64,000 nt of DNA, taken from Candidatus Algichlamydia australiensis (GTDB lineage: Bacteria; Chlamydiota; Chlamydiia; Chlamydiales; JAJFMI01). Both the position numbers and the translations under genes were made by a program. The notes beneath the pieces are model-generated. The model searched no databases, was not told the origin of the DNA, and saw only the letters and a list, made by a program, of their open reading frames with translations. Below are positions 2,342-51,887 of the stretch, piece by piece. Where the stretch lies: positions 23,403-87,402 of the forward strand of contig JAXCHI010000001.1 of NCBI GenBank assembly GCA_033977065.1, read 5' to 3'. Within the stretch, counting starts at the first letter, position 1, and each line of letters starts with the position of its first letter.

Positions 2342-3606
2342 GAAAAAAGAGGGGTCAAAAACTCACGAGGAGTTTTTCAATCTTTTCCCGGAGGGGAAGG
2401 GAAAAAATAAAAGCTTCCCCCTCCTTCTTGAAAGACTGCAGAAGCTGGCTAAAGAAAAGAATCTTTCCCCTGAGCAGGTAAGTGCCCTTTTGAAGTCTCA
2501 TCCAGATATTGAAAGTGACGATGAAATCAAGACGTTCGTCGGTATTCTGGAAAAAAATTGGTCAGACTTTAGAAAAATGTTTGAGCCTGCGAAAAAGCAA
2601 AAGTTTCGCCAATCAGGTCATTTCGTAGATCAGAAATTGAAGCACTCTTATCCAGCAAGCAACCAGCCCTCTCTTTTTGACTTAATTCAGTCTCCCAAAG
2701 TCAAGGACCGTATCGCAACTGGGCAAATTGAGGTACAAGCAGTAGGTGTTAGACTTTCGTCCCCTGAGGATCGCCTGTTGAATGCACTCCAGGGGCTTCT
2801 CCATAGATATAGTTCTAATACAGACCCAGAGACACAAGAGTATTATAAGGGAAATGAGAGGAACGAACTTGTTATTTTTGGAAAAGATAAAAAAGAGAGC
2901 CCTACTCTAAGAATAAAGCCTGCTGATCTTTACAAAGCATATCTCGAAAGAGATGATTACTCAGGTGCGGAGATCAAGTACATCAAAAATTTGCTTATTA
3001 ACTTGGCTAACAAGAAATTCTTGATGATTTTTGATAGAAAAAGAAAGGCGAAAGTGAAGGGAAAAAATTGAGACCCTTACAGATAGAATTGAAGAGTACC
3101 AAGGCCTCATCAGGGTTATTAGCTATACCGAAGGCTTAAGTGAAAAAGAGATTAAAAATCTGAAAAAGGGAGATAACTCTGCTTTTGAAAAAAAGGGGGA
3201 GTTGATCATTGGCTTTAATCCGATTTTGGTAGATCAAATCAGCTCTAAGTATGTTGAATACCCTTCTGATATTAATAAGAGAATGGTAATTGCTGCTGGA
3301 GGGGGAAGGCTAGTAACTGAAGCCATGAATCTTTTGCGCGACTATCTATTGCGCTCTCTTTCTTGTAAAAGTTACAAACCTGAAATCAATGAAGACAAGC
3401 TTCCCTACATCCTGAAGTTAGATTCGTGTGTGAAGTTTCACCGAAAAAAGAGACTAAAAGAGCGCATTGAAGGCGCAATCCAAACGTGCAAAAACCTAGG
3501 CCTCATCCTTAACGTCGACATAGTCACAGGCTCTTTAGGGCAAAACAAATACGTTTTTGAGTTAAATCCCAATTTTATCACAGATACCCCTTCAACTGAC
3601 TCTTAA
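2325..3606 (+). pseudogene. pGP2-D-like chlamydial plasmid replication protein, split by a 1-bp frameshift near 3062-3067
   Basis: ORF 2325-3071 stops just after GGGAAAAAATTGA. The +1 frame is open from 3067 (IETLTDRIEEYQGLIRVISY...GELIIGFNPILVDQISSKYVEYPSDINKR) to the stop at 3606. Its position directly after dnaB matches pGP1-pGP2 order. Confidence 0.7.
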
Positions 3607-5729: not shown

Positions 5730-6144
5730 TTAAACGCTCTGTAACGGCTTTTTTATCCGCAACTCCATACCATTCATCCCTGAACGTATTTAACTTAAAC
5801 CCTAAGCTTTTTAAAGCTTCTTTTAGTTCTAATGGGGGAGGTGAGGGGAAAGACAGAATGATTCTTGAAGAGGAAGCGCTTTTATTTTGAGAGTTGATAG
5901 CCAACTGATTCCAATTAGAGACCTTGCTATTATCCTTCATGTCTAGAGCGATTTGGAGAAAAGCACCGAGCAATGTCTTTTCTGAAAAGTCTGAAATACC
6001 AGCAGTTCGCGCAAGCTCCCCAATCTTGATTAACTTTCTAGTTTTCTGTTTTCTTTCTCGTTCCCTTAGGCGTCGTTCCTTCTCCTCTAATTTAGCTTTT
6101 TGCAGCGCTATCTTTTCTTTTTGTCTCTCAATTACTGCCGTCAT
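5692..6144 (-). CDS. traD: Ti-type conjugal transfer protein TraD (relaxosome accessory, MobS-like)
   Basis: Coiled coil ERKQKTRKLIKIGELARTAG...TLLGAFL; divergent from traA. ATG at 6144 preferred over TTG at 6156. Confidence 0.75.
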   Translation of the reverse strand: MTAVIERQKEKIALQKAKLEEKERRLRERERKQKTRKLIKIGELARTAGISDFSEKTLLGAFLQIALDMKDNSKVSNWNQLAINSQNKSASSSRIILSFPSPPPLELKEALKSLGFKLNTFRDEWYGVADKKAVTERLNGFDVKIEVVNG

Positions 6145-23149: not shown

Positions 23150-23452
23150 TTAACTGTACCGGCTAGAAAATGCATCAAGTACAGACTCAACCTGAAGACC
23201 AAACTCATTTGGTTCGTCATGTGCATCAATGCCTTTGCTAGTAAATAAATTCATCAATTCGTCAATAATTAGGTCAGCTTGTTGCTCCGTAAGGGTTACA
23301 TTGTAAATAGATTTGCTTCCATTATAAACATGATTAGAAAATAAGTTGTTGATTTTTTTTCTAACCGCTTCGTTTTCAACATTCTCTATGAGAAAAATTA
23401 GCTCTGTTCTAGTTAGCTTATATTTTTTTTCGTCCATAGCAAGCACCTTCAC
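23150..23452 (-). CDS. Putative immunity protein for the Rhs toxin
   Basis: Small acidic ORF overlapping the Rhs stop; ...GIDAHDEPNEFGLQVESVLDAF. Confidence 0.65.
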   Translation of the reverse strand: MKVLAMDEKKYKLTRTELIFLIENVENEAVRKKINNLFSNHVYNGSKSIYNVTLTEQQADLIIDELMNLFTSKGIDAHDEPNEFGLQVESVLDAFSSRYS

Positions 23453-26400
23453 TTGTTTATAAGAGTTTCTCTAGTTTGAACAACTCCACTTCGATTCCAA
23501 ACCTGTACACCTCTGGCTTTTCCAAAAGCTGTAATAATTTTTCCTTCAGAGTTGAGTACTACAGTAGCTTCTTTTCCGACGTATCTTACTGCTTTATCAC
23601 TTTGGAATACAATTTTTTTTGGAAATTGTACAGCATCTAAAATTGCTTTTGCATTAACTCCTCTTCCCCCATCTCTACCTATAGCTTGATTTAATCCATG
23701 TTTTTTATAACCTGTAATTTTGTTAGAAATACAACTCTTTTCATGAATATAGATCGAAGGTGTTTGTCCAATAGGTGATCTTGCGTATGTTGCGGCCATG
23801 ACCGGAACTGATCGAGATCCAGCTAGGAGAACTTGAGTCCCTCCTGCAGTAAAGGCTACTGTAGTCAGGTCGTCTATGAATGCTGCTGCGTTGGGGTCAA
23901 TTCCTGACATCTCCATGAGCTGACAACTTCCAGTTCTCATTCTCTGATTATATGCTATTGTCGAGATGCCAGAAAATGCTTGATCTAGTCCATGCATTAA
24001 TATGGGCCATCCTACAACTGATCCAGCACCCAAAGTTTTTAGGATAATTGATCCACCTATCCAAGCTTCGAAACAACCACTTGCAAATTTCATGCTCCCT
24101 TGAACAAAAGGGCTTCCTATAGCGTTACCTACTTTCTGAGCAAAAGTGAGGTTGGAATTTGCATGAAACCAGTCTTCTTTTTTTCCAATTGGAGGCAAGG
24201 GGGAGAAGTAATTGAAATGTGGAGAATAGGTGTTGAGATATACGAGTGCTTCTGAAGTTTGTGCAGTGCTGCGAATTTTGTCTTCGAGGCCATAGAAGTC
24301 AAAGTGAGTCAAAGGATTATTGTTAAGGTAGGCGTAGAGATTGGGGCCTTCGGTGTAGCTTTTGGGATCGGGTGTAAGAAAGCGACCGAGGGTGGGTGAG
24401 TAGTAACGACGGCCAAAGTAGACGAGGTTGTGGTCGGTGCGTTTCGATTGGTAGCGCCAGGGGTTGTGGGTCGTTGTGGTTTGTTCTTCACCAAAGGCAG
24501 TGAAATAATAGCTTTCTAAAGGTTGCTTAGTGTGGATGTCAATAAGGGTTGTAATGTCACCTGTGAGGCTGTGGAGGGGGAGGTAGGTTTGGTGATTAAG
24601 TTCGATGAGGATGGAGGCGCCGATTTCGGCGCCGTGACCTAGGCCTAGGATGCGGAGCTGGGTTATGGTGCCGTTTTCTACAAGGCCAATTTCATTATCT
24701 CCATCGTAGATGTAGTATTGTGGGGGGTGTTCTATCCATTCGTTGTTTTGTTTGTGGGAGGTTTGTTGGGAGGTGCGACGGTGCCACGGGTCGTAGGTAT
24801 AGGTTGTTTTTGTTATTGGGGTTTTGATTTGGATGAGACGATCTAAGGCATCGTATTTATACTTAATATTAGTTGAATTGGTTTCTGCACTTGTGGGGTT
24901 TCCGTTTGGATCGTATTCAAAGTTAAAGTCATCGGTAGTTGAGATTTGGTTTAAAGATGTAATTTCATACGAGTCGTCATTTTTTGAGAGGCGGTTGTGG
25001 AGGGAGTCATAGGTGTATTGGTCTTTGTTTTCTTGTGTGAGTTGATTGAGGTCGTTGTAGGTGTAGGTAGTGGTTTGGTTGTCTAGGATGCGGCTAGTGA
25101 GGTTACCGGCTTTATCAAAGCTTTTATGGGCTTCTTTTTGGTAGGGGCTTTTGCGCTTTATTTCACAATTTAAGAGGTCATAGGTATGGGTTTGGGTTCC
25201 AAGGTTTGCAATGAGGGTTTCGGTTTGGGGTGTGTGGTGTTCATTGTATTGGGTGTAGGTGTGGGTGTAGCTATTGAAGGTGATGGAGGTGAGGTGGTAG
25301 GGATCATAGGTGTAGGTAGCAGTCCGGTTATCAGGGAAAGTTAAGGTTTTACGGCGATTATCAGCCGAATAAGATGAGGTTAAGGTAAGCCCGTTATTAA
25401 GTGTTTCTGTCAGGAGGTTGTCATAGGAGTCGTAGGTACGGGTTGTTGTTGTGTTGTGGGTGTGGTCGTTAGCTTTGATGCAACGATCAAGGTTGTCATA
25501 GGTAAAGGTATAGTGAAGGTTTGGAGCAGTAGTATCTATGTGGCGACCTTTTTCATCGTAGGTTTTTTCGATGAGGGTACCGTCAGGTTTTGTTATGGTT
25601 TGTTCTTGTCCATCGGGTGTGTAGGTGTAAATGGTTGTTTTTTCTCCAGACTCTGTTTGGGATGTGAGTCTGTTCATTTTGTCATAGGTATAAGCGAGGG
25701 TAGTTGTGCGGGCGGGACCGTTGGGATCGAAGATGGTGATGGTGTGTGTGAGGAGGTTGCCTGAGGAATCTCTTTCGTAGTGTTCTTTGTGGAGGGGGGT
25801 GCCTGTTTTGGAAAGGTGTGTTGTTGCAAGGAGCTGGCCGTGGCTGTTGTAGGTCTGTTCTAGTTGGCGGTTTTCTGGGTCTAGGGTGGTTTTAGTGAGT
25901 TGGTTGTAGGTGATGGTTGTGGTGTGGCCAAGAGGATTAGTGTGTGAGGTTAGGCGGTTTAAAGGGTCGTATTCGTAGATGTCTGTAGAGTCGCCTTTTG
26001 TGATGGTGTTGGCGTTGCCATGAGCATCGTAGGTGTAGGTAGTTTCGCTGTAAATGGTGGGGTTTTCAGCTAAATCTATCTCGCTCTCTGCAAGGATTTG
26101 GTTTTGGGAGTCGTAGGTGTAGAGGGTGCGCTGTTCGTTTTGGGTTTTTGTTTCGATTCGAGAGAGGGTGTCATAGGTGTAGGTGGTGGTTTGATCAAGA
26201 AAGGTCTCTTGGGTGAGGCGGCCGGCTGGGTCGTAGGTGTAGGTAGTGAGGCGGTTTCCTTGGTCGAGGTGGCTGAGTTTATGAAAGCTGTTGTAAGTGG
26301 TGCTCTCTTCTGAAAGGAGTTTATTTGTGGACGAAAGGAGTTTTTTGGTTAGGGGGCGGTTTGCGTAATCGTAGGTGGTGTAGATTTGACGTGAACATTT

Positions 26401-28656
26401 ATCTACCTGTTTGATCAAGTTTCCGGCGGGATCGTAGGTAAAGGTTTCAGTTGTTTGATCGGGATAGGTTGTTTGGATGATTTGGTTGCGAACGTTGTAG
26501 TGATGGGTTGTGCGGTTTCCTCTTGGATCGATGATTTCAATTGGGTTATTTAAGCTATCGTAGGTGGTTTTTGTGGTGGCGATTTCGTTGCTTTCTAGTG
26601 TGAGGTTGCTGCGTGTGTCGTATTGGTATTGAGTCGTGAGGCCGTAGGGGTCTGTTGTTGTGATTCGTTGGCCTAATGGATTGTAGGTATGCTGGGTTGT
26701 ATGGGAGATGTTTGGGGCCCCGGTTTGTGTTTCAGTGAGAAGGTTGCTTTCTTGATCGTAGGTGTATTGGGTGGTGAGGTTTTTGGCGGGCTCGCTTTTG
26801 GTTATGCACTGATCAAGGGTGCTGTAGGTGTAGCTGGTCATTTCGCCAAGTGGATTGGTTTCTTGGATGAGGTTGCCGTGGAGGTCGTAGGTATAGGTTA
26901 GGGTATAGCAGAGGGTGTTATTCGCGTCGAATATCTCTTTGGTTTCAACTTTGCATTGCTGGTTATAGGTGAGTTGGGTTGTTTTTAGGGTCTTCTCTTT
27001 AGAGGATTTGGGGTCCCAGTAGCTCTCTCGGATTTTGATGGGCAGGTGTGTGGCGGGGCCTTCTTGGGCGAGTTCGTAGCGTGTGATGGTGCGTTCTGTA
27101 ACGCTTTCTAAGTCCGTGGGATCTTCGCTGTTGCCATCATCGAGAATTTTTTCATTTAGGTTGTTGTATTCATCGTATGAAAAGAATTCACGAGTAACGA
27201 TTTGTCCTTCGTTTGAGGTAAGTTTTGATGTGGGAAGGTTTGTCTTTTTATAATAAGTAATTTTTGTGGTTTTTCCAGAGGGTTCTTGGATGAGGATGGG
27301 GAAATTTTCGTAGTTGTATTCGTAGGTTGTGGTAGTAGAGGGACCGCTAATTGGGAGTTCGTTTTTATCTAATTCGATAGGCGATGGGTCGTTTCCAGAT
27401 AGGTTGCCCCAGAGGGTTTCTGTGGAGATGTTGTGGTGGTGGTCGTAGGTGTATGTGATGGCTTTGATACAGTTGCCATTAGGATCGAATGTGAGGATAG
27501 CAAGGAGGTTACCGAGTACTGTGTTGCGCGTTCCGTAAATGTAGCGCGTTTCGCTAGCATCGGGATGGACAATTTTGTAGGGGCGGTTATTACCTCTTGG
27601 CTGGTAGGAGGTTGTGTTACCCAAACAGTCAGTTACAAGGGTTTGCTTGGGATTTTTCCCTGCTTTTTGCTTGTATTTGAATGTGTAGATGGGGGCGCTT
27701 GATGCTGATGTGTAGAGCTCTTGCACTTTGTCAAATGCAAGTTTTGCGTGTGTAAGCGGTCCCTGATTGGTCAGCTGTCTTGTAATGCTGTGTGGGGTTG
27801 TGATGGCGATCTCTTCAGGAGTGTGTTCTGAGACAGCTCTGGTGAGTGTTCCGTTATTAAAGTAGTAGGTAATGCTCTGCCCATTGCTCGTTTCTATGGT
27901 TTTGATACCTGGTCTGTTACTGATCGTAATCCAGCCATATTCGATTTTTTTATTTTCTTTATCGTTAGTGCCTGTAATTAAAATTTTTCGTAAATGACTC
28001 TTGCTATCATATTCGTAGAAGATTTTATTCCCATTAGGAAGTATTTCTTCCTTTAACAAAAAGAGTTTACCAGCAGCGATGCGTTTATTTGGCAGGTCTA
28101 CTCTTGAAGATCTCTTTTTGCTGATTTTAGTGCAGTTGTAGATTCTCTTTGTCCCATCTCCAAAGGAAATTTCATAAGATTTTTTCTTTTTGTTGTATTG
28201 ACCTTTGATGTTTCTAGTATTTGTTTGGCCGCTAATCACTCCTCTGTGGGTGTTGACTAGGTGGGCGGTGTGGGTTTTGTAGTCGAGCATATAGGATGAC
28301 CTATCACTCTCTATGGGTCTGAGTTTGATCGGAAGTCCTAGCTCATCTTTAAAGTGCAGCTTTTTTTGTCTCACTTTTTTCTTTTGCCTGCCGTCTTTGT
28401 TGATGACTCCCACTTTTTGTATCTCTTCAAGTCTTACATGGGGGAAAAACTTCCAATCTGTTTGGGATGTGTAGATTCGTGTGATGGGATAAGGTTGAGC
28501 GCAATTGAGAATCAGATCAGTTTCAACAGCAAAGTATTCGCCTGTGATCGCGTTAACGCAGCCAGCTACGGTGAAATTGGGATCGTTGTCGAGAGGAGTG
28601 TCGACTGTTGAGAAAAGGGTCGTTAGAATTAGGGCAAAAATAGAGAGTATTTTCAT
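23449..28656 (-). CDS. Rhs/YD-repeat polymorphic toxin with signal peptide; C-terminal colicin E5/BECR-like RNase candidate
   Basis: VNAITGEY, many YTYD repeats, Rhs core (YFGRRYYSPTLGRFLTPDP...NLYAYLNNNPLTHFDFYGL). C-terminus KHGLNQAIGR...ATVVLNSEGKIITAF. Confidence 0.92.
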   Translation of the reverse strand: MKILSIFALILTTLFSTVDTPLDNDPNFTVAGCVNAITGEYFAVETDLILNCAQPYPITRIYTSQTDWKFFPHVRLEEIQKVGVINKDGRQKKKVRQKKLHFKDELGLPIKLRPIESDRSSYMLDYKTHTAHLVNTHRGVISGQTNTRNIKGQYNKKKKSYEISFGDGTKRIYNCTKISKKRSSRVDLPNKRIAAGKLFLLKEEILPNGNKIFYEYDSKSHLRKILITGTNDKENKKIEYGWITISNRPGIKTIETSNGQSITYYFNNGTLTRAVSEHTPEEIAITTPHSITRQLTNQGPLTHAKLAFDKVQELYTSASSAPIYTFKYKQKAGKNPKQTLVTDCLGNTTSYQPRGNNRPYKIVHPDASETRYIYGTRNTVLGNLLAILTFDPNGNCIKAITYTYDHHHNISTETLWGNLSGNDPSPIELDKNELPISGPSTTTTYEYNYENFPILIQEPSGKTTKITYYKKTNLPTSKLTSNEGQIVTREFFSYDEYNNLNEKILDDGNSEDPTDLESVTERTITRYELAQEGPATHLPIKIRESYWDPKSSKEKTLKTTQLTYNQQCKVETKEIFDANNTLCYTLTYTYDLHGNLIQETNPLGEMTSYTYSTLDQCITKSEPAKNLTTQYTYDQESNLLTETQTGAPNISHTTQHTYNPLGQRITTTDPYGLTTQYQYDTRSNLTLESNEIATTKTTYDSLNNPIEIIDPRGNRTTHHYNVRNQIIQTTYPDQTTETFTYDPAGNLIKQVDKCSRQIYTTYDYANRPLTKKLLSSTNKLLSEESTTYNSFHKLSHLDQGNRLTTYTYDPAGRLTQETFLDQTTTYTYDTLSRIETKTQNEQRTLYTYDSQNQILAESEIDLAENPTIYSETTYTYDAHGNANTITKGDSTDIYEYDPLNRLTSHTNPLGHTTTITYNQLTKTTLDPENRQLEQTYNSHGQLLATTHLSKTGTPLHKEHYERDSSGNLLTHTITIFDPNGPARTTTLAYTYDKMNRLTSQTESGEKTTIYTYTPDGQEQTITKPDGTLIEKTYDEKGRHIDTTAPNLHYTFTYDNLDRCIKANDHTHNTTTTRTYDSYDNLLTETLNNGLTLTSSYSADNRRKTLTFPDNRTATYTYDPYHLTSITFNSYTHTYTQYNEHHTPQTETLIANLGTQTHTYDLLNCEIKRKSPYQKEAHKSFDKAGNLTSRILDNQTTTYTYNDLNQLTQENKDQYTYDSLHNRLSKNDDSYEITSLNQISTTDDFNFEYDPNGNPTSAETNSTNIKYKYDALDRLIQIKTPITKTTYTYDPWHRRTSQQTSHKQNNEWIEHPPQYYIYDGDNEIGLVENGTITQLRILGLGHGAEIGASILIELNHQTYLPLHSLTGDITTLIDIHTKQPLESYYFTAFGEEQTTTTHNPWRYQSKRTDHNLVYFGRRYYSPTLGRFLTPDPKSYTEGPNLYAYLNNNPLTHFDFYGLEDKIRSTAQTSEALVYLNTYSPHFNYFSPLPPIGKKEDWFHANSNLTFAQKVGNAIGSPFVQGSMKFASGCFEAWIGGSIILKTLGAGSVVGWPILMHGLDQAFSGISTIAYNQRMRTGSCQLMEMSGIDPNAAAFIDDLTTVAFTAGGTQVLLAGSRSVPVMAATYARSPIGQTPSIYIHEKSCISNKITGYKKHGLNQAIGRDGGRGVNAKAILDAVQFPKKIVFQSDKAVRYVGKEATVVLNSEGKIITAFGKARGVQVWNRSGVVQTRETLINK

Positions 28657-31455: not shown

Positions 31456-32592
31456 TTATCTTGATAAATGCAAGAGGTAGGACTTAGCTGCATTTTCTAA
31501 AAATTCTCTTTTTGTTACCTGCCGAACTCTCTTGTCATCGATGCAAAAACACTTATCTCCCAAATTCAGGTAATAGATATAGTGTCCATAATCAACAGTA
31601 TGACCCAGATGCTGTACATAGCCCAGTATAGAAAATTTGTTGCCACTTATATCAATAGAGTTTTCTTTTCCAATGTCCAAATATCCAATTTTCTTAGCTG
31701 AACTTTCACCTTCTGCCCAGTCCAGTCGAAAATAGAGGTCTTTTGCACTTTCAAGTAAAATCCTTTTCTGAGACATCGCTTGATTTTCATGGTCATCTGA
31801 ATCAGAAAAGTAGCGATCAATAGCGCTTTTTAAAGAGCCATCTTCTGCATCAAAACCCAAAGTGTGCAGCCACTCTTGATCCTCTACAGAGTAAGAAAAA
31901 CTATCATCGTGTTTGGAAAAATGCTTTATTTCTGTTGTAGGTTCTATAGAAAAGGAGTCAGCAAGCTTTCGGAGAAAATCAGCACTGTCATTTTGAACGT
32001 CCTTATCATATTTAAACAATTCACGAATTCTTTCTGAATCTAGAGCAACTTCTCCTTCTCTATAATTTTCAAAAAAATCGTTAAATTCAGCAACCCTTAT
32101 ACAGTTGTTTTTAGGTCTCTCTTCTGTAAAAATTTTACCTAAAGGGGAATGAATAACAAACTGTAGTGCTGCATTAAGAAAGCAGTTGCTCCCGACGTTT
32201 CGAATTCCTTGTGGTGGGATTATGCTTTTTCTTCTCGTTTCAATATCTGCAATAGCAATATCTTTATTGATGAGTAATACCTGCGAAAGCTTGGAATCTA
32301 CTACAGAAGTCGTCCTTGCTCCTGTCTCTTGAGGCGTCCAGTCTGCAATTTTTTTGTAGGGAGTGGGCTTTCCGCTAGCACATGAGTTGTTTTCAGTGTA
32401 GAATCCCTTTCCTATAGCACAAAAGAGAGTCTCATTATTAATAATTTTTTCTTTAAATAAGGAGTAAGTTTTAGAATTTCTTTCTAAGTAAGCTTTCAGG
32501 ACTTCTCCCTGCTCTTTTGCAGCAGCAGGCGATTCGAGTGAACCAAGAGAGTAATTTTCCCCTTGAATTTGTATCGATATTTTATAAATCAT
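31456..32592 (-). CDS. Eukaryote-like ubiquitin-specific protease (USP, peptidase C19)
   Basis: Cys box GIRNVGSNCFLNAALQ, QNDSADFL, His box HLGHTVDYGHY followed by IDDKRV. Confidence 0.85.
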   Translation of the reverse strand: MIYKISIQIQGENYSLGSLESPAAAKEQGEVLKAYLERNSKTYSLFKEKIINNETLFCAIGKGFYTENNSCASGKPTPYKKIADWTPQETGARTTSVVDSKLSQVLLINKDIAIADIETRRKSIIPPQGIRNVGSNCFLNAALQFVIHSPLGKIFTEERPKNNCIRVAEFNDFFENYREGEVALDSERIRELFKYDKDVQNDSADFLRKLADSFSIEPTTEIKHFSKHDDSFSYSVEDQEWLHTLGFDAEDGSLKSAIDRYFSDSDDHENQAMSQKRILLESAKDLYFRLDWAEGESSAKKIGYLDIGKENSIDISGNKFSILGYVQHLGHTVDYGHYIYYLNLGDKCFCIDDKRVRQVTKREFLENAAKSYLLHLSR

Positions 32593-46761: not shown

Positions 46762-48129
46762 TTATTTAGCTTTTACAATGTCAGATTCATGGATATGCAG
46801 TGTCAGGCCTCCTTTTTTAGGAAAGACAACTTCGTAAATAATATCCCCATATTCGGACTCTTCTGAAACCATCGTGAATTTAGAGCCTAAGATCTCACCA
46901 ACTCCAAACCGGCGATTCAATATATGCTCAACTTTTTCTCCAACTTCAAGCGGTTCAATCTGCTCGGCTATAGGAGCAGGAACAGGTTTGTAGATAAGAT
47001 GTTCTAAATATTGAAAGTATATTGTTTTCTGGTTAGTATGTGCATTGGGCTGACTACATTTTAAAATACAATACTCAATTGGCATCTTACCAGTATCGTC
47101 CCTCTGCTTTTTTGCTTTTTCATTCATATATCTCAATAGGACACTAATAAGCCTATGGTGTTGAGTTTGTAGGATATAGTGAAGGTAGTTCTGTCTTTTT
47201 TCGTAGACTTTATTGAGATCTTTTTCTAGCATTTTTTGGCAAATGCGATCTGCAATTTCATCAACATTGTGAGAACCATTTATTGCGTGATGAAGGGGGG
47301 TTTGGTTGTTTTTGTCAGTAGCTCCGAGTATTTCAGGTGTTGCTTTTTCAAGGAACTGCAGAAAAGTTTTTAGATCATGTACAAACTGACAAACATAGTG
47401 CATGTAGTTTTTGCCGTGTACATCTCTAACAAGAAGATAATCTAAAGAGATTTCATTTAAAATAGTTAGGTAATTGCTGCTGTTTAATATGTTTTGGTTT
47501 GCTAATCCGCCTAGAAGTGGGGTTTGACCGGCATCATTTCTGATTCCAAGGTTTTCAAGGCCAGTTTTTCCAAAGATGCTTTCAATTGTCTGTTTATCTG
47601 AAAATTTGGTTGCCAAATGGAGGGGCGTATTGCCTAGACCATCTTTTTGCAAAAGTTCATTACTACTCATTAATTCTATTAGTATTTTTGCGTTCAGGTC
47701 TTTACTCCTTAATAATTTATGTAGAACTAAGTGTCTGTGCTCTAAAAAATCTTCCGTAAATACTTTTCTTTTTGATTCTTCAATACGTTTGTAAAGTTTC
47801 CAGAAGTCTATTACAATTCTATACTCTTTTTTTATAACTTTACTCTCTACCTTAAGAGCTTTTGATATTTGTTTTTTTACATATTCCTGCATTGATTCGA
47901 TTGCATCTCGTAAAGCGTAATTAGGTTTAATATCTGAACGATCTACTTCAATTTGACAATTAGGGCATGTTTTATTTCCTTTTTGAACTATCCATACAGT
48001 AATAGTTTTTTCAGAAAAAGAGTGTCCGCATGGCAACACGACTGCTTTTTTCATCTCTTCATGCGAGATAGGGTCTTGGAAAGGTTCAAAATCTATCTGG
48101 GAGTCGCGATTAACGTCTTTTACACTCAT
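46762..48129 (-). CDS. U-box/RING + ankyrin-repeat protein (putative E3 ligase effector) with C-terminal SH3/Tudor-like domain
   Basis: FQDPISHEEMKKAVVLPCGHSF...TCPNC...PNYALRDAI (U-box); GNTPLHLA, GQTPL, NQTPLHHA (ankyrin). Confidence 0.88.
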   Translation of the reverse strand: MSVKDVNRDSQIDFEPFQDPISHEEMKKAVVLPCGHSFSEKTITVWIVQKGNKTCPNCQIEVDRSDIKPNYALRDAIESMQEYVKKQISKALKVESKVIKKEYRIVIDFWKLYKRIEESKRKVFTEDFLEHRHLVLHKLLRSKDLNAKILIELMSSNELLQKDGLGNTPLHLATKFSDKQTIESIFGKTGLENLGIRNDAGQTPLLGGLANQNILNSSNYLTILNEISLDYLLVRDVHGKNYMHYVCQFVHDLKTFLQFLEKATPEILGATDKNNQTPLHHAINGSHNVDEIADRICQKMLEKDLNKVYEKRQNYLHYILQTQHHRLISVLLRYMNEKAKKQRDDTGKMPIEYCILKCSQPNAHTNQKTIYFQYLEHLIYKPVPAPIAEQIEPLEVGEKVEHILNRRFGVGEILGSKFTMVSEESEYGDIIYEVVFPKKGGLTLHIHESDIVKAK

Positions 48130-48253
48130 GGGATCCTCACTTTTGAAACGAGACTATACTAACATAAGCTTAATAAAGTCAAACTTTTATTAAACGGGCC
48201 CACTTGGTAACAAAGGTTATTTCATCATCTTGGTTTGGAAATTGCAAGCTCTT

Positions 48254-48390
48254 GTATTGGCGGCGCTCTTATTCTAGGGTTTTTAGTTCGTTTTTTAGGT
48301 TAATGCGGGCGGAAGAGATCTTCTTCCATGCCCAACGTACAAACGACAGGAAACTCTGGGCCTTTACTATTTTGAATTATCAATAGGCGA
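48254..48390 (-). pseudogene. UvrD/PcrA helicase remnant (motifs V-VI)
   Basis: The reverse strand reads LLIIQNSKGPEFPVVCTLGMEEDLF and, after a frameshift, TLE*ERR. This compares with UvrD LMTLHxxKGLEFPVVFxxGMEEGxFP...LEEERR. Confidence 0.7.
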
Positions 48391-48472
48391 AGAGCATAAC
48401 CATGCATTTTCACTTCATTATTGGTTTTTAAGGCGAGCTCTTCTAAGAAAAGGATAAGGGATCGTTATAGCA

Positions 48473-48652
48473 ACGTCGGATAATATAGATTATGTATGTT
48501 TAAATTGCTGATTATCATTTACTTACAGAAATATCATTGTAGCAATAAAGCATAGTTTTTTCACGAAAGTACTGAAAACTTTAGAAATACTGTAAGCGTC
48601 TATTTTTATTTTTTGGGCATACATATCGAATAATTTTTTTTATTCGATTCTG
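48473..48652 (+). repeat. dif-like Xer site + IHF-like palindrome + accessory sequence, copy 1
   Basis: ACGTCGGATAA-TATAGA-TTATGTATGTT (11-6-11), then TAA-ATTGC-TGA-TTA-TCA-TTTAC-TTA. About 180 bp of similarity to copy 2, ending in an ATCGAATAA...TTATTCGAT hairpin. Confidence 0.75.
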
Positions 48653-48713
48653 GTAAGAACAAAATATGATTTTTTACGTAATCGAGAAATGGACTTCTTT
48701 GGGTTTCACATTT

Positions 48714-48983
48714 TTAAAATAAGTCAGCATGCGTGCCTGTTTTTGTGAAGTAAATTCGCTCGCTATCTCTTTTGTATATCAAAAGCCAATCTGGTGTTAT
48801 ATGACACTCCCAGTACCCTGAAAAATTCCCTTTTAGCCTATGATTACGGTGTTTTTCTGGAAGTGGCTTTTCGCGTATTAACATGCTCATAACAGACTTG
48901 ATTTTGGACAAGTCATATCCTCGTTTTTGTACCCTCTTTAAATCTTTATCAAATGATCTTTCATACACGGGAATAAGCATCAA
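48714..48983 (-). CDS. yafQ: YafQ-family (RelE superfamily) toxin
   Basis: FDKDLKR, LPEKHRNHRLKG, WECHITPDWLLIY, TGTHADLF. Confidence 0.92.
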   Translation of the reverse strand: MMLIPVYERSFDKDLKRVQKRGYDLSKIKSVMSMLIREKPLPEKHRNHRLKGNFSGYWECHITPDWLLIYKRDSERIYFTKTGTHADLF

Positions 48984-49231
48984 AGACCCAATTTATCGAA
49001 AAAATCTTTTTCGTTTTCACATTCAACTAAGTTTGTTTCATTTTCAACATTTTCTATGGCTTTCATAGTTGTCGCATTTGGGGAATTTTCTGTGTATAAG
49101 TTGCCGTGAATCCATTCTGCAACCAATTCTCTCATGGTTTTTCCTAGGATGGCTGCAAGTGTTTTTAAACGCTTATGATCTTCAGCTGGCAAGTCTATAG
49201 TCATTCTAGAAAGACTACTTTTTGTACTCAT
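48980..49231 (-). CDS. RHH antitoxin cognate to YafQ
   Basis: RMTIDLPAEDHKRLK (RHH) and PNATTMKAI (RelB/DinJ-like tail); overlaps the toxin start. Confidence 0.8.
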   Translation of the reverse strand: MSTKSSLSRMTIDLPAEDHKRLKTLAAILGKTMRELVAEWIHGNLYTENSPNATTMKAIENVENETNLVECENEKDFFDKLGL

Positions 49232-49297
49232 CCTTACCTCCTTTTCTTAACTTTACCAGATTTGAGGATTTAAAGAAATAAAGAAATATTTTCTTCA

Positions 49298-49473
49298 ACT
49301 TCTGATAATATAGGTTATGTATACTTAAGTTGTTGGTTGTTAGCTACTTGCAGAAAAGCCATTGTAATAAATACGCATGATTTTTATCAAAATATTAAAA
49401 CCCTTAGAAACGCTATAATCGCCTATTTTGGTTTTTTGGACATATATGTCGAATAACTTTTTTTATTCGATTC
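49298..49473 (+). repeat. dif-like Xer site + IHF-like palindrome + accessory sequence, copy 2
   Basis: ACTTCTGATAA-TATAGG-TTATGTATACT, then TAA-GTTGT-TGG-TTG-TTA-GCTAC-TTG; colinear with copy 1 through the TCGAATAA...TTATTCGA hairpin. Confidence 0.75.
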
Positions 49474-49527
49474 TAAGATATACAAAACTCGTGCTTTATT
49501 CAGACTTTTTAAGAATACGCTTCTCTC

Positions 49528-49863
49528 TCAAGGATGTGGGACTATTGCAATAATTGTGATTTCTTTTGCGTTTGGCCCATAACACCAAAAAATCCTGTAG
49601 GCAGAGGCTGTGTTATTTTGAGCATATGCCTCGAATACTTTTCCTTGCTTATCCCAGGGATGATCTATAGAGCTATATTTGTGGGTTTTAAGACCAGGAT
49701 GGCGTGGATCCGCGCTCAGCAGATTGATAGCCTTTTTTATTTGTTTAAAAAGACCTGCTTGCTTCGAAGATTTTTTATTTTTAGTATTTGTTTTTAGGCC
49801 TGCAGCTTTCTTTAACTTTTGGAATTGGTTTTGGGCTTTTTCTGTTAAAATGATTTCAAACAT
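49528..49863 (-). CDS. RelE/ParE-superfamily toxin
   Basis: FEIILTEKAQNQF, PRHPGLKTHKY, VFEAY, AYRIFWCYGP...ITIIAIVPHP. Confidence 0.75.
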   Translation of the reverse strand: MFEIILTEKAQNQFQKLKKAAGLKTNTKNKKSSKQAGLFKQIKKAINLLSADPRHPGLKTHKYSSIDHPWDKQGKVFEAYAQNNTASAYRIFWCYGPNAKEITIIAIVPHP

Positions 49864-50102
49864 TATTCTTTATATTCGCTATGGTCAAGTTTGAATAATT
49901 TACCTTCGCGCGCGTCCTTCAAGCCTTTCTCAACCTCTTTTAAAGCTTCCGGATTTTTTAAAAGCCAAAGATCTTTTTCTGGAATAATGGCTGCCTTCCT
50001 TAAAAGAAACTCCCCATCCTTTTCTTCAATGATAAAAGTATTTAAGGCATATTTCTTTCCTAGATTAAGCCTGCCTTTTGCATCAGTTTGAACGGTGTGC
50101 AT
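49863..50102 (-). CDS. AbrB/MazE-like antitoxin
   Basis: QTDAKGRLNLG (swapped hairpin) and IPEKDLWLLKNPEALKEVEKGLKDAREG; translationally coupled to the toxin. Confidence 0.75.
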   Translation of the reverse strand: MHTVQTDAKGRLNLGKKYALNTFIIEEKDGEFLLRKAAIIPEKDLWLLKNPEALKEVEKGLKDAREGKLFKLDHSEYKE

Positions 50103-50204
50103 ATGCTACCTCCTCTTGCTACTTTGATAATAGCAAAGAGTGGGATTTTTATACAAGTGGGAATCGAGTTTTTTTGATATTTCCCACTTTTAAGTAGTTT
50201 TTAT

Positions 50205-50270
50205 AACTTTTATAATACAAATCACGTATGTTTAAATCATTAAATATCAGCTACTTGCAAAAACCATTGT
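50205..50270 (+). repeat. Degenerate dif-like + IHF-like site, copy 3 (truncated)
   Basis: AACTTTTATAA-TACAAA-TCACGTATGTT, then TAA-ATCAT-TAA-ATA-TCA-GCTAC-TTG-CAAAAACCATTGT, matching copies 1 and 2. Confidence 0.6.
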
Positions 50271-50327
50271 TTTTAAATTAAGAATACATAATTATCTCTG
50301 TCAGAATCTTTACCTGGGAGGATATTT

Positions 50328-51887
50328 ATGGTTTACCATATTGAAGGAAGTGTATCACAGGCTCGCGAGTTGCCGCTTTCACCGTGTGATCAGAAGTCTA
50401 CTTCTGTTAGCAGAGAAATTGAACAGGTTGCAAGTTGTCAAATTAAGTCTTCACATCCAAGCAAGATGCTCCAATCTGCCTGGAACTCTAAAGTGTTACA
50501 ACCTCTTGTGATTAGTTCATTTTTAGTTCCGTTTTCTCCACCAAGTGCCTTCCCTATTCTAGTCCTAGTATCTACAGTTTGGGTGGCCTATTTATTAGTA
50601 CCTGAAATATTAAGACGACAAAAAAATGAGTCTATAATTACCTCAACCTCAACCAATCTTTCTAAGACATTTCCTTCTAAATTAGATAAAAATATCTTTG
50701 TTTCTAGAAAGAGATGGGCTGTCACTTTAATTGCTGATAAAAATACCCGACATGCAAGATTAATTTTTGAAGGAGTTGATAAATCTAATGAGCAATGGAC
50801 TATTTTCGTACATTTGAAAGGAAATAGCTCAGGTTGTAAACGAATCTTGCATGAATGTGGTGGTTTGGTGGAAATGAAAGATATCACAGATAGAGATATT
50901 ATTTATAGAGATAGAAGCTCTACATGGAGCATCAGTGCATCTTCAGGAAGAAGGGTAATAAATTACGTCCAAGATTTTTGTGACGAATACTTTGATCCTG
51001 AAGATATTGCTAGTGTTAGAAATCAAAAAACTATAAATAATGATCCTAAAAAGGTTCCTTTTTTTATTGCAGGAAACCAATCAAAAATAACAAGTTTCTT
51101 CAATCGATTCGTTGCTAGAGAATTCCACAGCTGCATTACTTTTTCTCTCTTATTGCTAAGAATAACTGGTGTTAGCTTTAGAAACCCTAATGGAAAACTT
51201 TATACAGATACATTGAACTTTTTAGGAGAAGAGAATGCAGTTTACAAAAGATCAAAGCTTCAAATTATGGATTTATGTTGGTTTATAATTTATGGCGATA
51301 TTGAAAGCATTATAGAGCACTTTCCTCCAAACAGCATAAATATCGATGAAATTGTTTACTTCTGTACTGATTCACAAAAAGAAAGAACAAAGAACATTTC
51401 TCCTCTAATGCTAGCAATTTTAACTAAAAATCATAAACTAGTAAAAATTTTAATTGAAAAACACAATGCTGATGTAGAGTTTGCTAGGGATGACGGTATT
51501 ACGCCTCTTTTTATTGCACGTGTTGTTGCAAAATTAAGTAAAGAGCATCCAATTGTTAAGTGTTTGATAACTAATGGTGCCCACAAATATTTAAAAGATC
51601 CAGATGGAAAATCAAATAATTTAAATAAAAAATCTTTAATAAATGATGGTATTTTTGGAGATGATGTGTGGCCCGTTCTTAGAGAAGATGACCAAGAGAT
51701 TCAGAGTTTGGATAAAGAGATAAAAAAAGTCTACGATGATGAAAGCGTTGATGATCAAACATTATTAAATCTTTTCAAACGCAGAGAATATCTTTGGCAG
51801 AAACAGAGTCAATTAGGAAAGATATGGAGTATTGTATACACGGAAAAAACAGAAATAGATTTCTCTGGAAATGGATTTGGTTTATAA
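50328..51887 (+). CDS. Ankyrin-repeat effector-like protein with N-terminal hydrophobic hairpin
   Basis: SPLMLAI...LVKILIEKHNADV..DGITPLFIA...IVKCLITNGA. Confidence 0.75.
   Translation: MVYHIEGSVSQARELPLSPCDQKSTSVSREIEQVASCQIKSSHPSKMLQSAWNSKVLQPLVISSFLVPFSPPSAFPILVLVSTVWVAYLLVPEILRRQKNESIITSTSTNLSKTFPSKLDKNIFVSRKRWAVTLIADKNTRHARLIFEGVDKSNEQWTIFVHLKGNSSGCKRILHECGGLVEMKDITDRDIIYRDRSSTWSISASSGRRVINYVQDFCDEYFDPEDIASVRNQKTINNDPKKVPFFIAGNQSKITSFFNRFVAREFHSCITFSLLLLRITGVSFRNPNGKLYTDTLNFLGEENAVYKRSKLQIMDLCWFIIYGDIESIIEHFPPNSINIDEIVYFCTDSQKERTKNISPLMLAILTKNHKLVKILIEKHNADVEFARDDGITPLFIARVVAKLSKEHPIVKCLITNGAHKYLKDPDGKSNNLNKKSLINDGIFGDDVWPVLREDDQEIQSLDKEIKKVYDDESVDDQTLLNLFKRREYLWQKQSQLGKIWSIVYTEKTEIDFSGNGFGL

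Follow-up and report, generated by a model that had tools for sequence, protein, structure and literature searches.

How a presumed plasmid of a chlamydia-like bacterium came to carry two unrelated toxin-antitoxin operons between three repeats resembling recombination sites, and whether the recombinases of the host act on these repeats, are the questions raised by positions 48473-50270 of the DNA analysed here. The window, which is the whole stretch of 64,000 nt, was taken from Candidatus Algichlamydia australiensis and corresponds to C1:23403-87402 of the genome under study (G000, 1.8 Mb); positions without a contig label are those of the window, and L-numbers denote examined loci of other genomes. 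Order-wide scans covered 401 genomes with G000 included, thus 400 others. On balance, and with moderate confidence, we read the region 48473-50270 as a plasmid multimer-resolution and addiction region that was assembled by Xer-mediated module accretion.

A repeat search identified a three-copy direct repeat at 48471-48560, 49296-49385 (74% identity) and 50203-50292 (60% identity), spaced 825 and 907 bp apart. Copies 1 and 2 share a further stretch (48558-48664 and 49381-49487, 77% identity) and have about 195 bp in common in all. Compared with shuffled sequences, the local alignments reached z values of 49 for copies 1 and 2, 8.2 for copies 3 and 1, and 5.8 for copies 3 and 2. The repeats contain 28-nt cores with an 11-6-11 geometry of left arm, spacer and right arm, which are s1 (ACGTCGGATAATATAGATTATGTATGTT), s2 (ACTTCTGATAATATAGGTTATGTATACT) and s3 (AACTTTTATAATACAAATCACGTATGTT), all located on the plus strand:

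48473..48500, plus strand: s1, dif-like Xer core with 0 mismatches to the order-wide consensus
49298..49325, plus strand: s2, dif-like Xer core with 1 mismatch to the order consensus and 23 of 28 positions identical to s1
50205..50270, plus strand: s3, decayed site (50205-50232) with a short conserved block, whose likeness to copies 1 and 2 stops near 50270

The two 11-nt arms of s1 and of s2 have partial dyad symmetry, both cores reading ..GATAA-N6-TTATG.., with TTATGT as the inner right arm in each, and their spacers (TATAGA in s1) are identical at five of six positions. In s3, the inner right-arm bases are changed to TCACG and the left arm shows a 1-nt deletion when aligned to s2.

A loose scan of the genome with ATAA-N6-TTATG led to a candidate chromosomal dif at C7:1315-1342 (minus strand), the left arm of which is identical to that of s1. 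This site is intergenic and syntenic with a site of the same-genus genome G001, and C7 is a chromosomal contig that encodes a Kdo transferase, malic enzyme and a tRNA ligase. In all, s1 agrees with the C7 dif at 20 of 28 positions (left arm 11/11, spacer 3/6, right arm 6/11) and s2 at 19 of 28 (9/11, 3/6 and 7/11), compared with 12 of 28 for s3 (6/11, 2/6 and 4/11). The pattern ACGTCNGATAANNNNNNTTATG, with up to one mismatch allowed, matches three places in the 1.8-Mb genome, namely the C7 dif, s1 and s2, and its reversed control matches none. Across the order it was found in 313 of 401 genomes, mostly once in each, and matches to the reversed control were rare. Judged by this distribution, the pattern is the dif consensus of the order. 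A search with the full 28-nt dif at up to three mismatches matched 0 of 40 relatives besides G000 itself. A pattern based on the right arm was set aside, as it matched only 47 of 151 genomes with a noticeable control, the outer right arm not being conserved in the order. According to a passage of PMC3025954, dif has been predicted in 14 of 14 Chlamydiae genomes.

An earlier description of the locus, the first-pass annotation, had been made from the sequence letters and had reported three same-orientation sites of 11-6-11 dif geometry at 48473, 49298 and 50205, the last of them degenerate, as well as the spacing of 825 and 907 bp. The repeat search and the cores confirm this arrangement, the degeneracy of the third copy being reflected in its low agreement with the host dif. 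The dif-type nature claimed for the sites holds for s1 and s2, in view of the consensus, the alignment to C7:1315-1342 and the presence of xerC and xerD genes, and s3 resembles the host dif weakly. As dif-type sites of this host, s1 and s2 are solidly identified; we infer binding and strand exchange by XerC and XerD at the two.

Contig C1 has a length of 87,402 bp and a GC content of 37.6%, compared with 42-43% on the large contigs. Among its products are ParA, the helicase DnaB, a relaxase of the MobA/MobL type, a coupling protein of the TrwB/TraD type and proteins of F-type transfer, of which TraG and TraH are encoded where the window ends, and TraF, N, U, C, B, K and E where the contig begins. 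Because the tra operon leaves one contig end and resumes at the other, we infer that C1 is a circular 87-kb F-type conjugative plasmid; no terminal overlap of the C1 ends was found. G000 contains exactly two tyrosine recombinase genes (PF00589), both of which are encoded on contigs other than C1. XerC was recognized by TIGR02224 (338.7 bits, above the cut-off) and a XerD-like protein by TIGR02225 (324.4 bits, slightly below the cut-off of 329.6). C1 itself has no PF00589 match and likewise no integrase, and no serine resolvase (PF00239) was found. As C1 lacks a recombinase of its own, its dimers must be resolved by host enzymes, for which s1 and s2 would be the obvious substrates. In the proposed mechanism, these two sites would serve multimer resolution by the host XerC/XerD, interleaved with two addiction operons.

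Such a role would recall the cer and psi sites, which are single-copy and have about 180 nt of accessory sequence on the XerC side, to which known proteins of enterobacteria bind. The array in the window is similar in combining a plasmid Xer core with 150-180 nt of conserved flank on a plasmid without its own resolvase; the 165-nt conserved flank of copies 1 and 2, in which the proposed IHF motif is not conserved, may correspond to a cer/psi-type accessory sequence. It differs in having two good sites and one decayed site within 1.8 kb. According to bioRxiv 10.1101/2024.04.05.588136, the replicons of Enterobacteriaceae that rely on XerCD are chiefly small plasmids and those larger than 250 kb, two size classes that exclude the 87 kb observed here.

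The two intervals between the sites are occupied by the following features:

48714..48983, minus strand: toxin 1, YafQ/RelE family (PF15738 YafQ_toxin, 2.4e-33; TIGR02385, 6.7e-25)
48980..49231, minus strand: antitoxin 1, ParD-like ribbon-helix-helix protein (ParD PF09386, 2.3e-6)
49232..49288, minus strand: promoter/operator region of pair 1 itself, conserved with the relatives L073, L074, L076 and L077
49528..49863, minus strand: toxin 2, RelE/ParE-fold protein of an unnamed family, according to a predicted model
49863..50102, minus strand: putative antitoxin 2, whose stop overlaps the toxin 2 start

The nearest relatives of pair 1 are found in metagenome-assembled genomes (MAGs) of Chlamydiae, and the N-terminus of antitoxin 1 is conserved in antitoxins encoded upstream of toxin relatives at Chlamydiae MAG loci. 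Toxin 2 has no match in Pfam or NCBIfam, and a profile search against PDB sequences gave none; its 782 homologues are without a Pfam domain. The predicted model of toxin 2 has a mean confidence (predicted local distance difference test, pLDDT) of 87.2, and its best Foldseek matches in the PDB are RelE, YoeB and ParE toxins, with template modelling (TM) scores of up to 0.79. Antitoxin 2 has only two homologues (92% and 81% identity), found no meaningful match among PDB sequences and gave a poor model (pLDDT 53), so that the AbrB label proposed for it by the first-pass annotation is tentative. Both operons agree with type II toxin-antitoxin systems of the RelE/ParE superfamily, a small antitoxin gene overlapping the toxin gene that follows it; pair 1 is assigned by family profiles and toxin 2 by its predicted fold. 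No similarity between pairs 1 and 2 was detected by BLASTP, in agreement with the earlier description of one unrelated toxin-antitoxin pair in each interval. The ribbon-helix-helix/YafQ identity proposed for pair 1 is likewise upheld by PF15738 and PF09386, and the RelE-like identity of toxin 2 by its predicted fold only.

The position of the operons relative to the sites bears on how the region was built. At every core, the left arm marks the abrupt beginning of the repeat. Upstream of pair 1, homology with its relatives stops at 49278-49288, leaving 10-20 nt to s2, and the downstream flank of pair 1 is not common to its relatives. Given these boundaries, each interval consists of a core, a 165-nt flank and one self-contained toxin-antitoxin operon. 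Furthermore, the left arm of s2 is similar to that of s3 while s1 has a dif-type arm, and the long flank is present in copies 1 and 2 only, a combination that would be expected from serial insertion into one backbone site. We therefore propose, from these sequence features, that two site-bearing modules may have been inserted one after the other at a single site of the plasmid backbone. The resulting order would be a site, its 165-nt flank and pair 1, a second site with its 165-nt flank and pair 2, and finally the decayed site. The site-bearing modules could have been inserted by Xer, or cointegrates of related plasmids could have been formed and resolved at such sites, an origin that would be comparable to that of integrative mobile elements exploiting Xer (IMEX) at chromosomal dif and of Acinetobacter dif modules. 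With spacers that are almost the same, s1 and s2 would be able to recombine and delete module 1, a loss that would be counter-selected by the toxin-antitoxin cargo. Taken together, the array was probably assembled by Xer.

The sequences beside the cores were compared as candidate accessory elements:

48501..48664, plus strand: conserved flank of copy 1 (accessory-like, about 165 nt), 74-77% identical to 49326-49487
49326..49487, plus strand: conserved flank of copy 2, the counterpart of the copy 1 flank
48623..48650, no strand assigned: h1, 28-nt palindrome ending unit 1, with 11-6-11 geometry and a left arm matching the dif left arm at 8 of 11 positions
49446..49473, no strand assigned: h2, 28-nt palindrome ending unit 2, with 11-6-11 geometry and a left arm matching the dif left arm at 9 of 11 positions

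The pattern TCNNATAA-N6-TTATNNGA occurs only twice in the 1.8-Mb genome, at h1 and h2, which may represent a second Xer-binding element. These palindromes are the hairpins in which, as the first-pass annotation had noted, about 150 bp shared by copies 1 and 2 beyond the cores come to an end. The same annotation had placed a 25-nt TAA-N5-TGA-N3-TCA-N5-TTA palindrome and an IHF-like WATCAR-N4-TTR motif at every copy. The former is present after copy 1 only, and the latter is missing in copy 2 and lies on the opposite strand and at another position in copy 1; on the 87-kb plasmid, this motif occurs 18 times. Another candidate accessory motif, YTACTTR at 22-24 nt past the right arm, was rejected as a general feature, since four of its seven matches (in 6 of 401 genomes, against one in the control) were the sites that had defined it. 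No Rfam family matched positions 48000-50600 at E values of up to 1.

Copies 1 and 2 each have a promoter-like -35/-10 element at the corresponding position of the minus strand (48564..48536 and 49390..49361, respectively). The copy 2 element (TTGATA-18-TACAAT) reads through s2 towards pair 1, and CATTGT, the block from which the -10 is formed, is among the few stretches retained in all three copies. The hairpin of unit 1 is located about 65 nt beyond the toxin 1 stop. The 195-nt unit could be mainly a transcription boundary, consisting of a terminating hairpin and a leftward promoter copied before successive operons, with an incidental or vestigial likeness to dif. We regard this explanation as highly improbable: the promoter-like matches are not enriched compared with shuffled sequences (5 found, 8.1 expected), pair 1 already has a promoter region of its own, which is conserved and located between its antitoxin gene and s2, and the hairpin is without a T tract or a G+C-rich stem. 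In addition, the match of s1 and s2 to the consensus, with three matches in the entire genome, is too specific to be incidental.

Several observations weigh against an assembly of the region by Xer, the first group of which concerns the locus itself. Agreement with the host dif is lost in the outer five positions of the right arms of s1 and s2 and at three of the six spacer positions. Two active direct sites should delete the DNA between them, which implies that at least one of the two may be inactive. The flank may have been conserved for transcription, given its promoter-like elements, rather than for recombination. To the left of s1, a 192-nt UvrD/PcrA-like helicase relic (48259-48450, minus strand) ends about 22 nt before the site. 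An intact gene on G001:C140 matches the relic with 74% identity, and the copy that G000 itself has at C3:430060-430252 does so with 70.6%. This truncated gene indicates that rearrangements other than those by Xer have also shaped the locus.

The second group of opposing observations concerns the distribution of the unit and its cargo. When the 400 other genomes of the order were searched with the unit of about 195 nt, only the 28-nt core region was matched meaningfully (in G001, G167 and G327), the remaining matches being short AT-rich chance alignments, and no match was obtained by blastn against PLSDB plasmids. A metagenome scan with the strict pattern yielded four matches, none of them with a second site in the stretch scanned; three have a GC content of 51-64% and are probably dif of other bacteria, and the fourth lies on a 1-kb contig with 41% GC. 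Of the 400 genomes, 62 contain toxin 2 homologues, and a dif-like site within 1.5 kb accompanies one of the 29 homologue loci examined, where it is weak. None of the six Chlamydiae loci with relatives of pair 1 has a convincing site within 2.5 kb. The stretch is contained in two sequencing runs of one study, which are labelled as dinoflagellate metagenome and one of which may be its source, and no excision joints, variants or indels were seen in their Logan contigs, which are blind to rare excision; the s1 and s2 junctions are also found, without differences, in contigs of the second sample.

These observations could be accommodated if one site (s1 or s2) served multimer resolution and the other copies were relics of homologous or illegitimate recombination, or of tandem duplication followed by cargo replacement, in which case Xer would not have been the builder and the cassettes would be immobile. 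Such a history would agree with a unit and array unique to this plasmid in all searches, with cargo relatives that lack dif-like sites elsewhere, with the decay of s3 and the lack of joints in contigs, and with the helicase relic near s1 as a sign of rearrangement that was not site-specific. We nevertheless consider it unlikely. With unrelated cargoes, plain duplication needs an additional replacement step; moreover, the boundaries of repeat and cargo fall within 10-20 nt of the core sites, the mosaic of arm types fits site-specific exchange, and similar site-bounded modules arise independently in other genomes, as described below.

The first-pass annotation had gone further and likened the region to an integron-like array, in which circles of a site and a toxin-antitoxin pair would be captured and released at high frequency with IHF in an architectural role. 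Vibrio superintegrons contain toxin-antitoxin cassettes that stabilize their arrays, and the window array shares with integrons the direct orientation, one gene unit per site and toxin-antitoxin cassettes; the difference of the s1 and s2 spacers at only one of six positions would also be compatible with active exchange. Beyond this geometry the likeness fails. No IntI or other integrase is encoded beside the array or elsewhere on the plasmid, the sites are of the double-strand dif type instead of folded attC, neither the IHF-like motif nor the palindrome is kept from copy to copy, each operon contains or borders a promoter region of its own, and no second site-bounded context was found for these cassettes. 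An active system of this kind is therefore improbable. Circles that move today received no support from the contigs, the only material searched for joints, and a search of the order and of PLSDB for copies of the unit with different cargo found the unit only on C1.

Assembly of the array by Xer-mediated accretion can be compared with two further systems. Acinetobacter dif modules are located between sites of alternating orientation. The window array resembles them in being plasmid-borne, small and recombinase-free, in its 28-nt XerC/XerD-type sites, in toxin-antitoxin genes as a cargo common to both and in its near-identical spacers. It differs in that all three sites are direct without an inverted pair, in the additional conserved flank of about 165 nt in each long unit, and in that no module was seen in a second site-bounded context. 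In addition, the Acinetobacter modules reside on small Rep_3 plasmids, compared with an 87-kb F-type conjugative plasmid of an intracellular chlamydia-like host here. Passages of PMC13141974 call the dif-module system unique to Acinetobacter and describe toxin-antitoxin modules as frequent cargo, reactions between sites with near-identical spacers, and C and D modules.

IMEX, which include vibrio filamentous phages and the gonococcal genetic island, are recombinase-free and bounded by direct dif-like repeats, one flanking site often being degenerate, and their serial insertion gives rise to arrays. The lack of its own recombinase, the direct dif-like repeats and the one degenerate site are features that the window array has in common with them. 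IMEX insert at chromosomal dif, whereas the units described here lie on the plasmid C1, are smaller than 1 kb and contain a toxin-antitoxin operon only. Overall, the array works most like a hybrid of integron, IMEX, dif module and cer/psi site, none of which fits alone.

Dif-like pairs were also identified in other genomes of the order. Fifteen genomes with multiple matches were re-scanned at up to two mismatches, and five of the 15 contained at least two plausible sites less than 5 kb apart on the same contig. The pairs and arrays recorded were:

G086:C1: Phd/PIN pair enclosed by two direct sites at a distance of 909 bp, contig of 1.25 Mb
G173:C10: four sites in 2.4 kb, oriented minus, minus, plus, plus, with HicAB, a PD-(D/E)XK nuclease gene between the inverted pair, and a small coiled-coil open reading frame (ORF)
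G135:C1: direct pair 4.8 kb apart with an ATPase gene and an IS21 element
G171:C72: direct pair 2.8 kb apart
G306: direct pairs, one around a helix-turn-helix gene and an ankyrin gene, one around a peptidase gene

The pairs of G086:C1 and G135:C1 are closer to a classical IMEX than the window array is. The G173:C10 array (L027, 31000-40000) belongs to a family other than that of the host and has nested sites at 3378 (minus), 4171 (minus), 5238 (plus) and 5774 (plus), with one spacer common to the outer pair and another to the inner pair. Two large genes converge on it with their 3' ends, and the gene ends beside the outer sites are alike. Among the loci seen, this array is the nearest to Acinetobacter-style dif modules.

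The dif locus of G001 (L033, G001:C76, 8703-8730) retains the left arm and left flank of the C7 dif as well as synteny with a CHMI gene. Its spacer and right arm differ from those of the C7 dif, the right arm matching that of s1, the plasmid type, at 10 of 11 positions, and its right flank has no related sequence in G000. The locus thus has what looks like the signature of integration at the chromosomal dif, with a hybrid site, on a contig that ends 463 bp onward. Two further loci contain partial or lone sites. G350:C22 (L032) has three tandem partial dif left arms without proper right arms in 175 nt (2001-2175), all on the same strand. G327:C41 (L036), a 25.6-kb contig from another family, has a lone dif-like site at 5833-5860 with the s1 spacer TATAGA, which adjoins a 1516-aa ORF without a match in NCBIfam and reverse-transcriptase-like ORFs.

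The genes flanking the array in the window encode eukaryote-like effector candidates, a U-box and ankyrin protein (46762-48129, minus strand) on one side and an ankyrin protein (50328-51887, plus strand) on the other. A UCH-type deubiquitinase (31456-32592, minus strand) is a further eukaryote-like effector candidate. The plasmid also encodes a TLC ATP/ADP transporter and a 1735-aa RHS-repeat protein (23449-28656, minus strand), the latter in a high-GC and strongly skewed segment. A chlamydia-like host is in keeping with the TLC transporter, with the ankyrin and U-box proteins, with the Chlamydiae MAGs that contain the nearest relatives of pair 1, and with the dinoflagellate label of the sequencing runs.

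Literature searches on Xer and dif in chlamydiae, on IMEX with toxin-antitoxin cargo and on chlamydial conjugative plasmids found no description of such sites, consistent with the initial impression that the arrangement is new for Chlamydiota. What is new here is the presence of Xer-site-bounded toxin-antitoxin modules on a plasmid of a chlamydia-like bacterium; the related dif-module and IMEX systems were already known. A broader and tentative proposal, which we consider possible if somewhat doubtful, is that chlamydia-like bacteria own an Xer-dependent module-exchange system, convergent with or related to that of Acinetobacter. Recombinase-free modules containing toxin-antitoxin, nuclease and ankyrin-type effector genes would be shuffled between conjugative plasmids and chromosomal dif via dif-like sites, here mostly direct, and the h1/h2 palindromes would act as a second Xer-binding control element. 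Modules that exploit Xer have been documented well in Acinetobacter plasmids, and IMEX are known at chromosomal dif in a few proteobacteria. If the proposal is true for these obligate intracellular bacteria, the recruitment of host Xer for gene shuffling would be far wider than thought. Frequent plasmid-chromosome transfer in chlamydiae is described in PMC7846284, in which the term 'Xer' has 0 occurrences. The order-wide dif consensus could be used for surveys and resolution assays of this idea, which, if true, would explain by site-specific recombination how genes pass between plasmids and chromosomes in chlamydiae, a group with few other tools for genetic exchange in which such gene flow has been reported.

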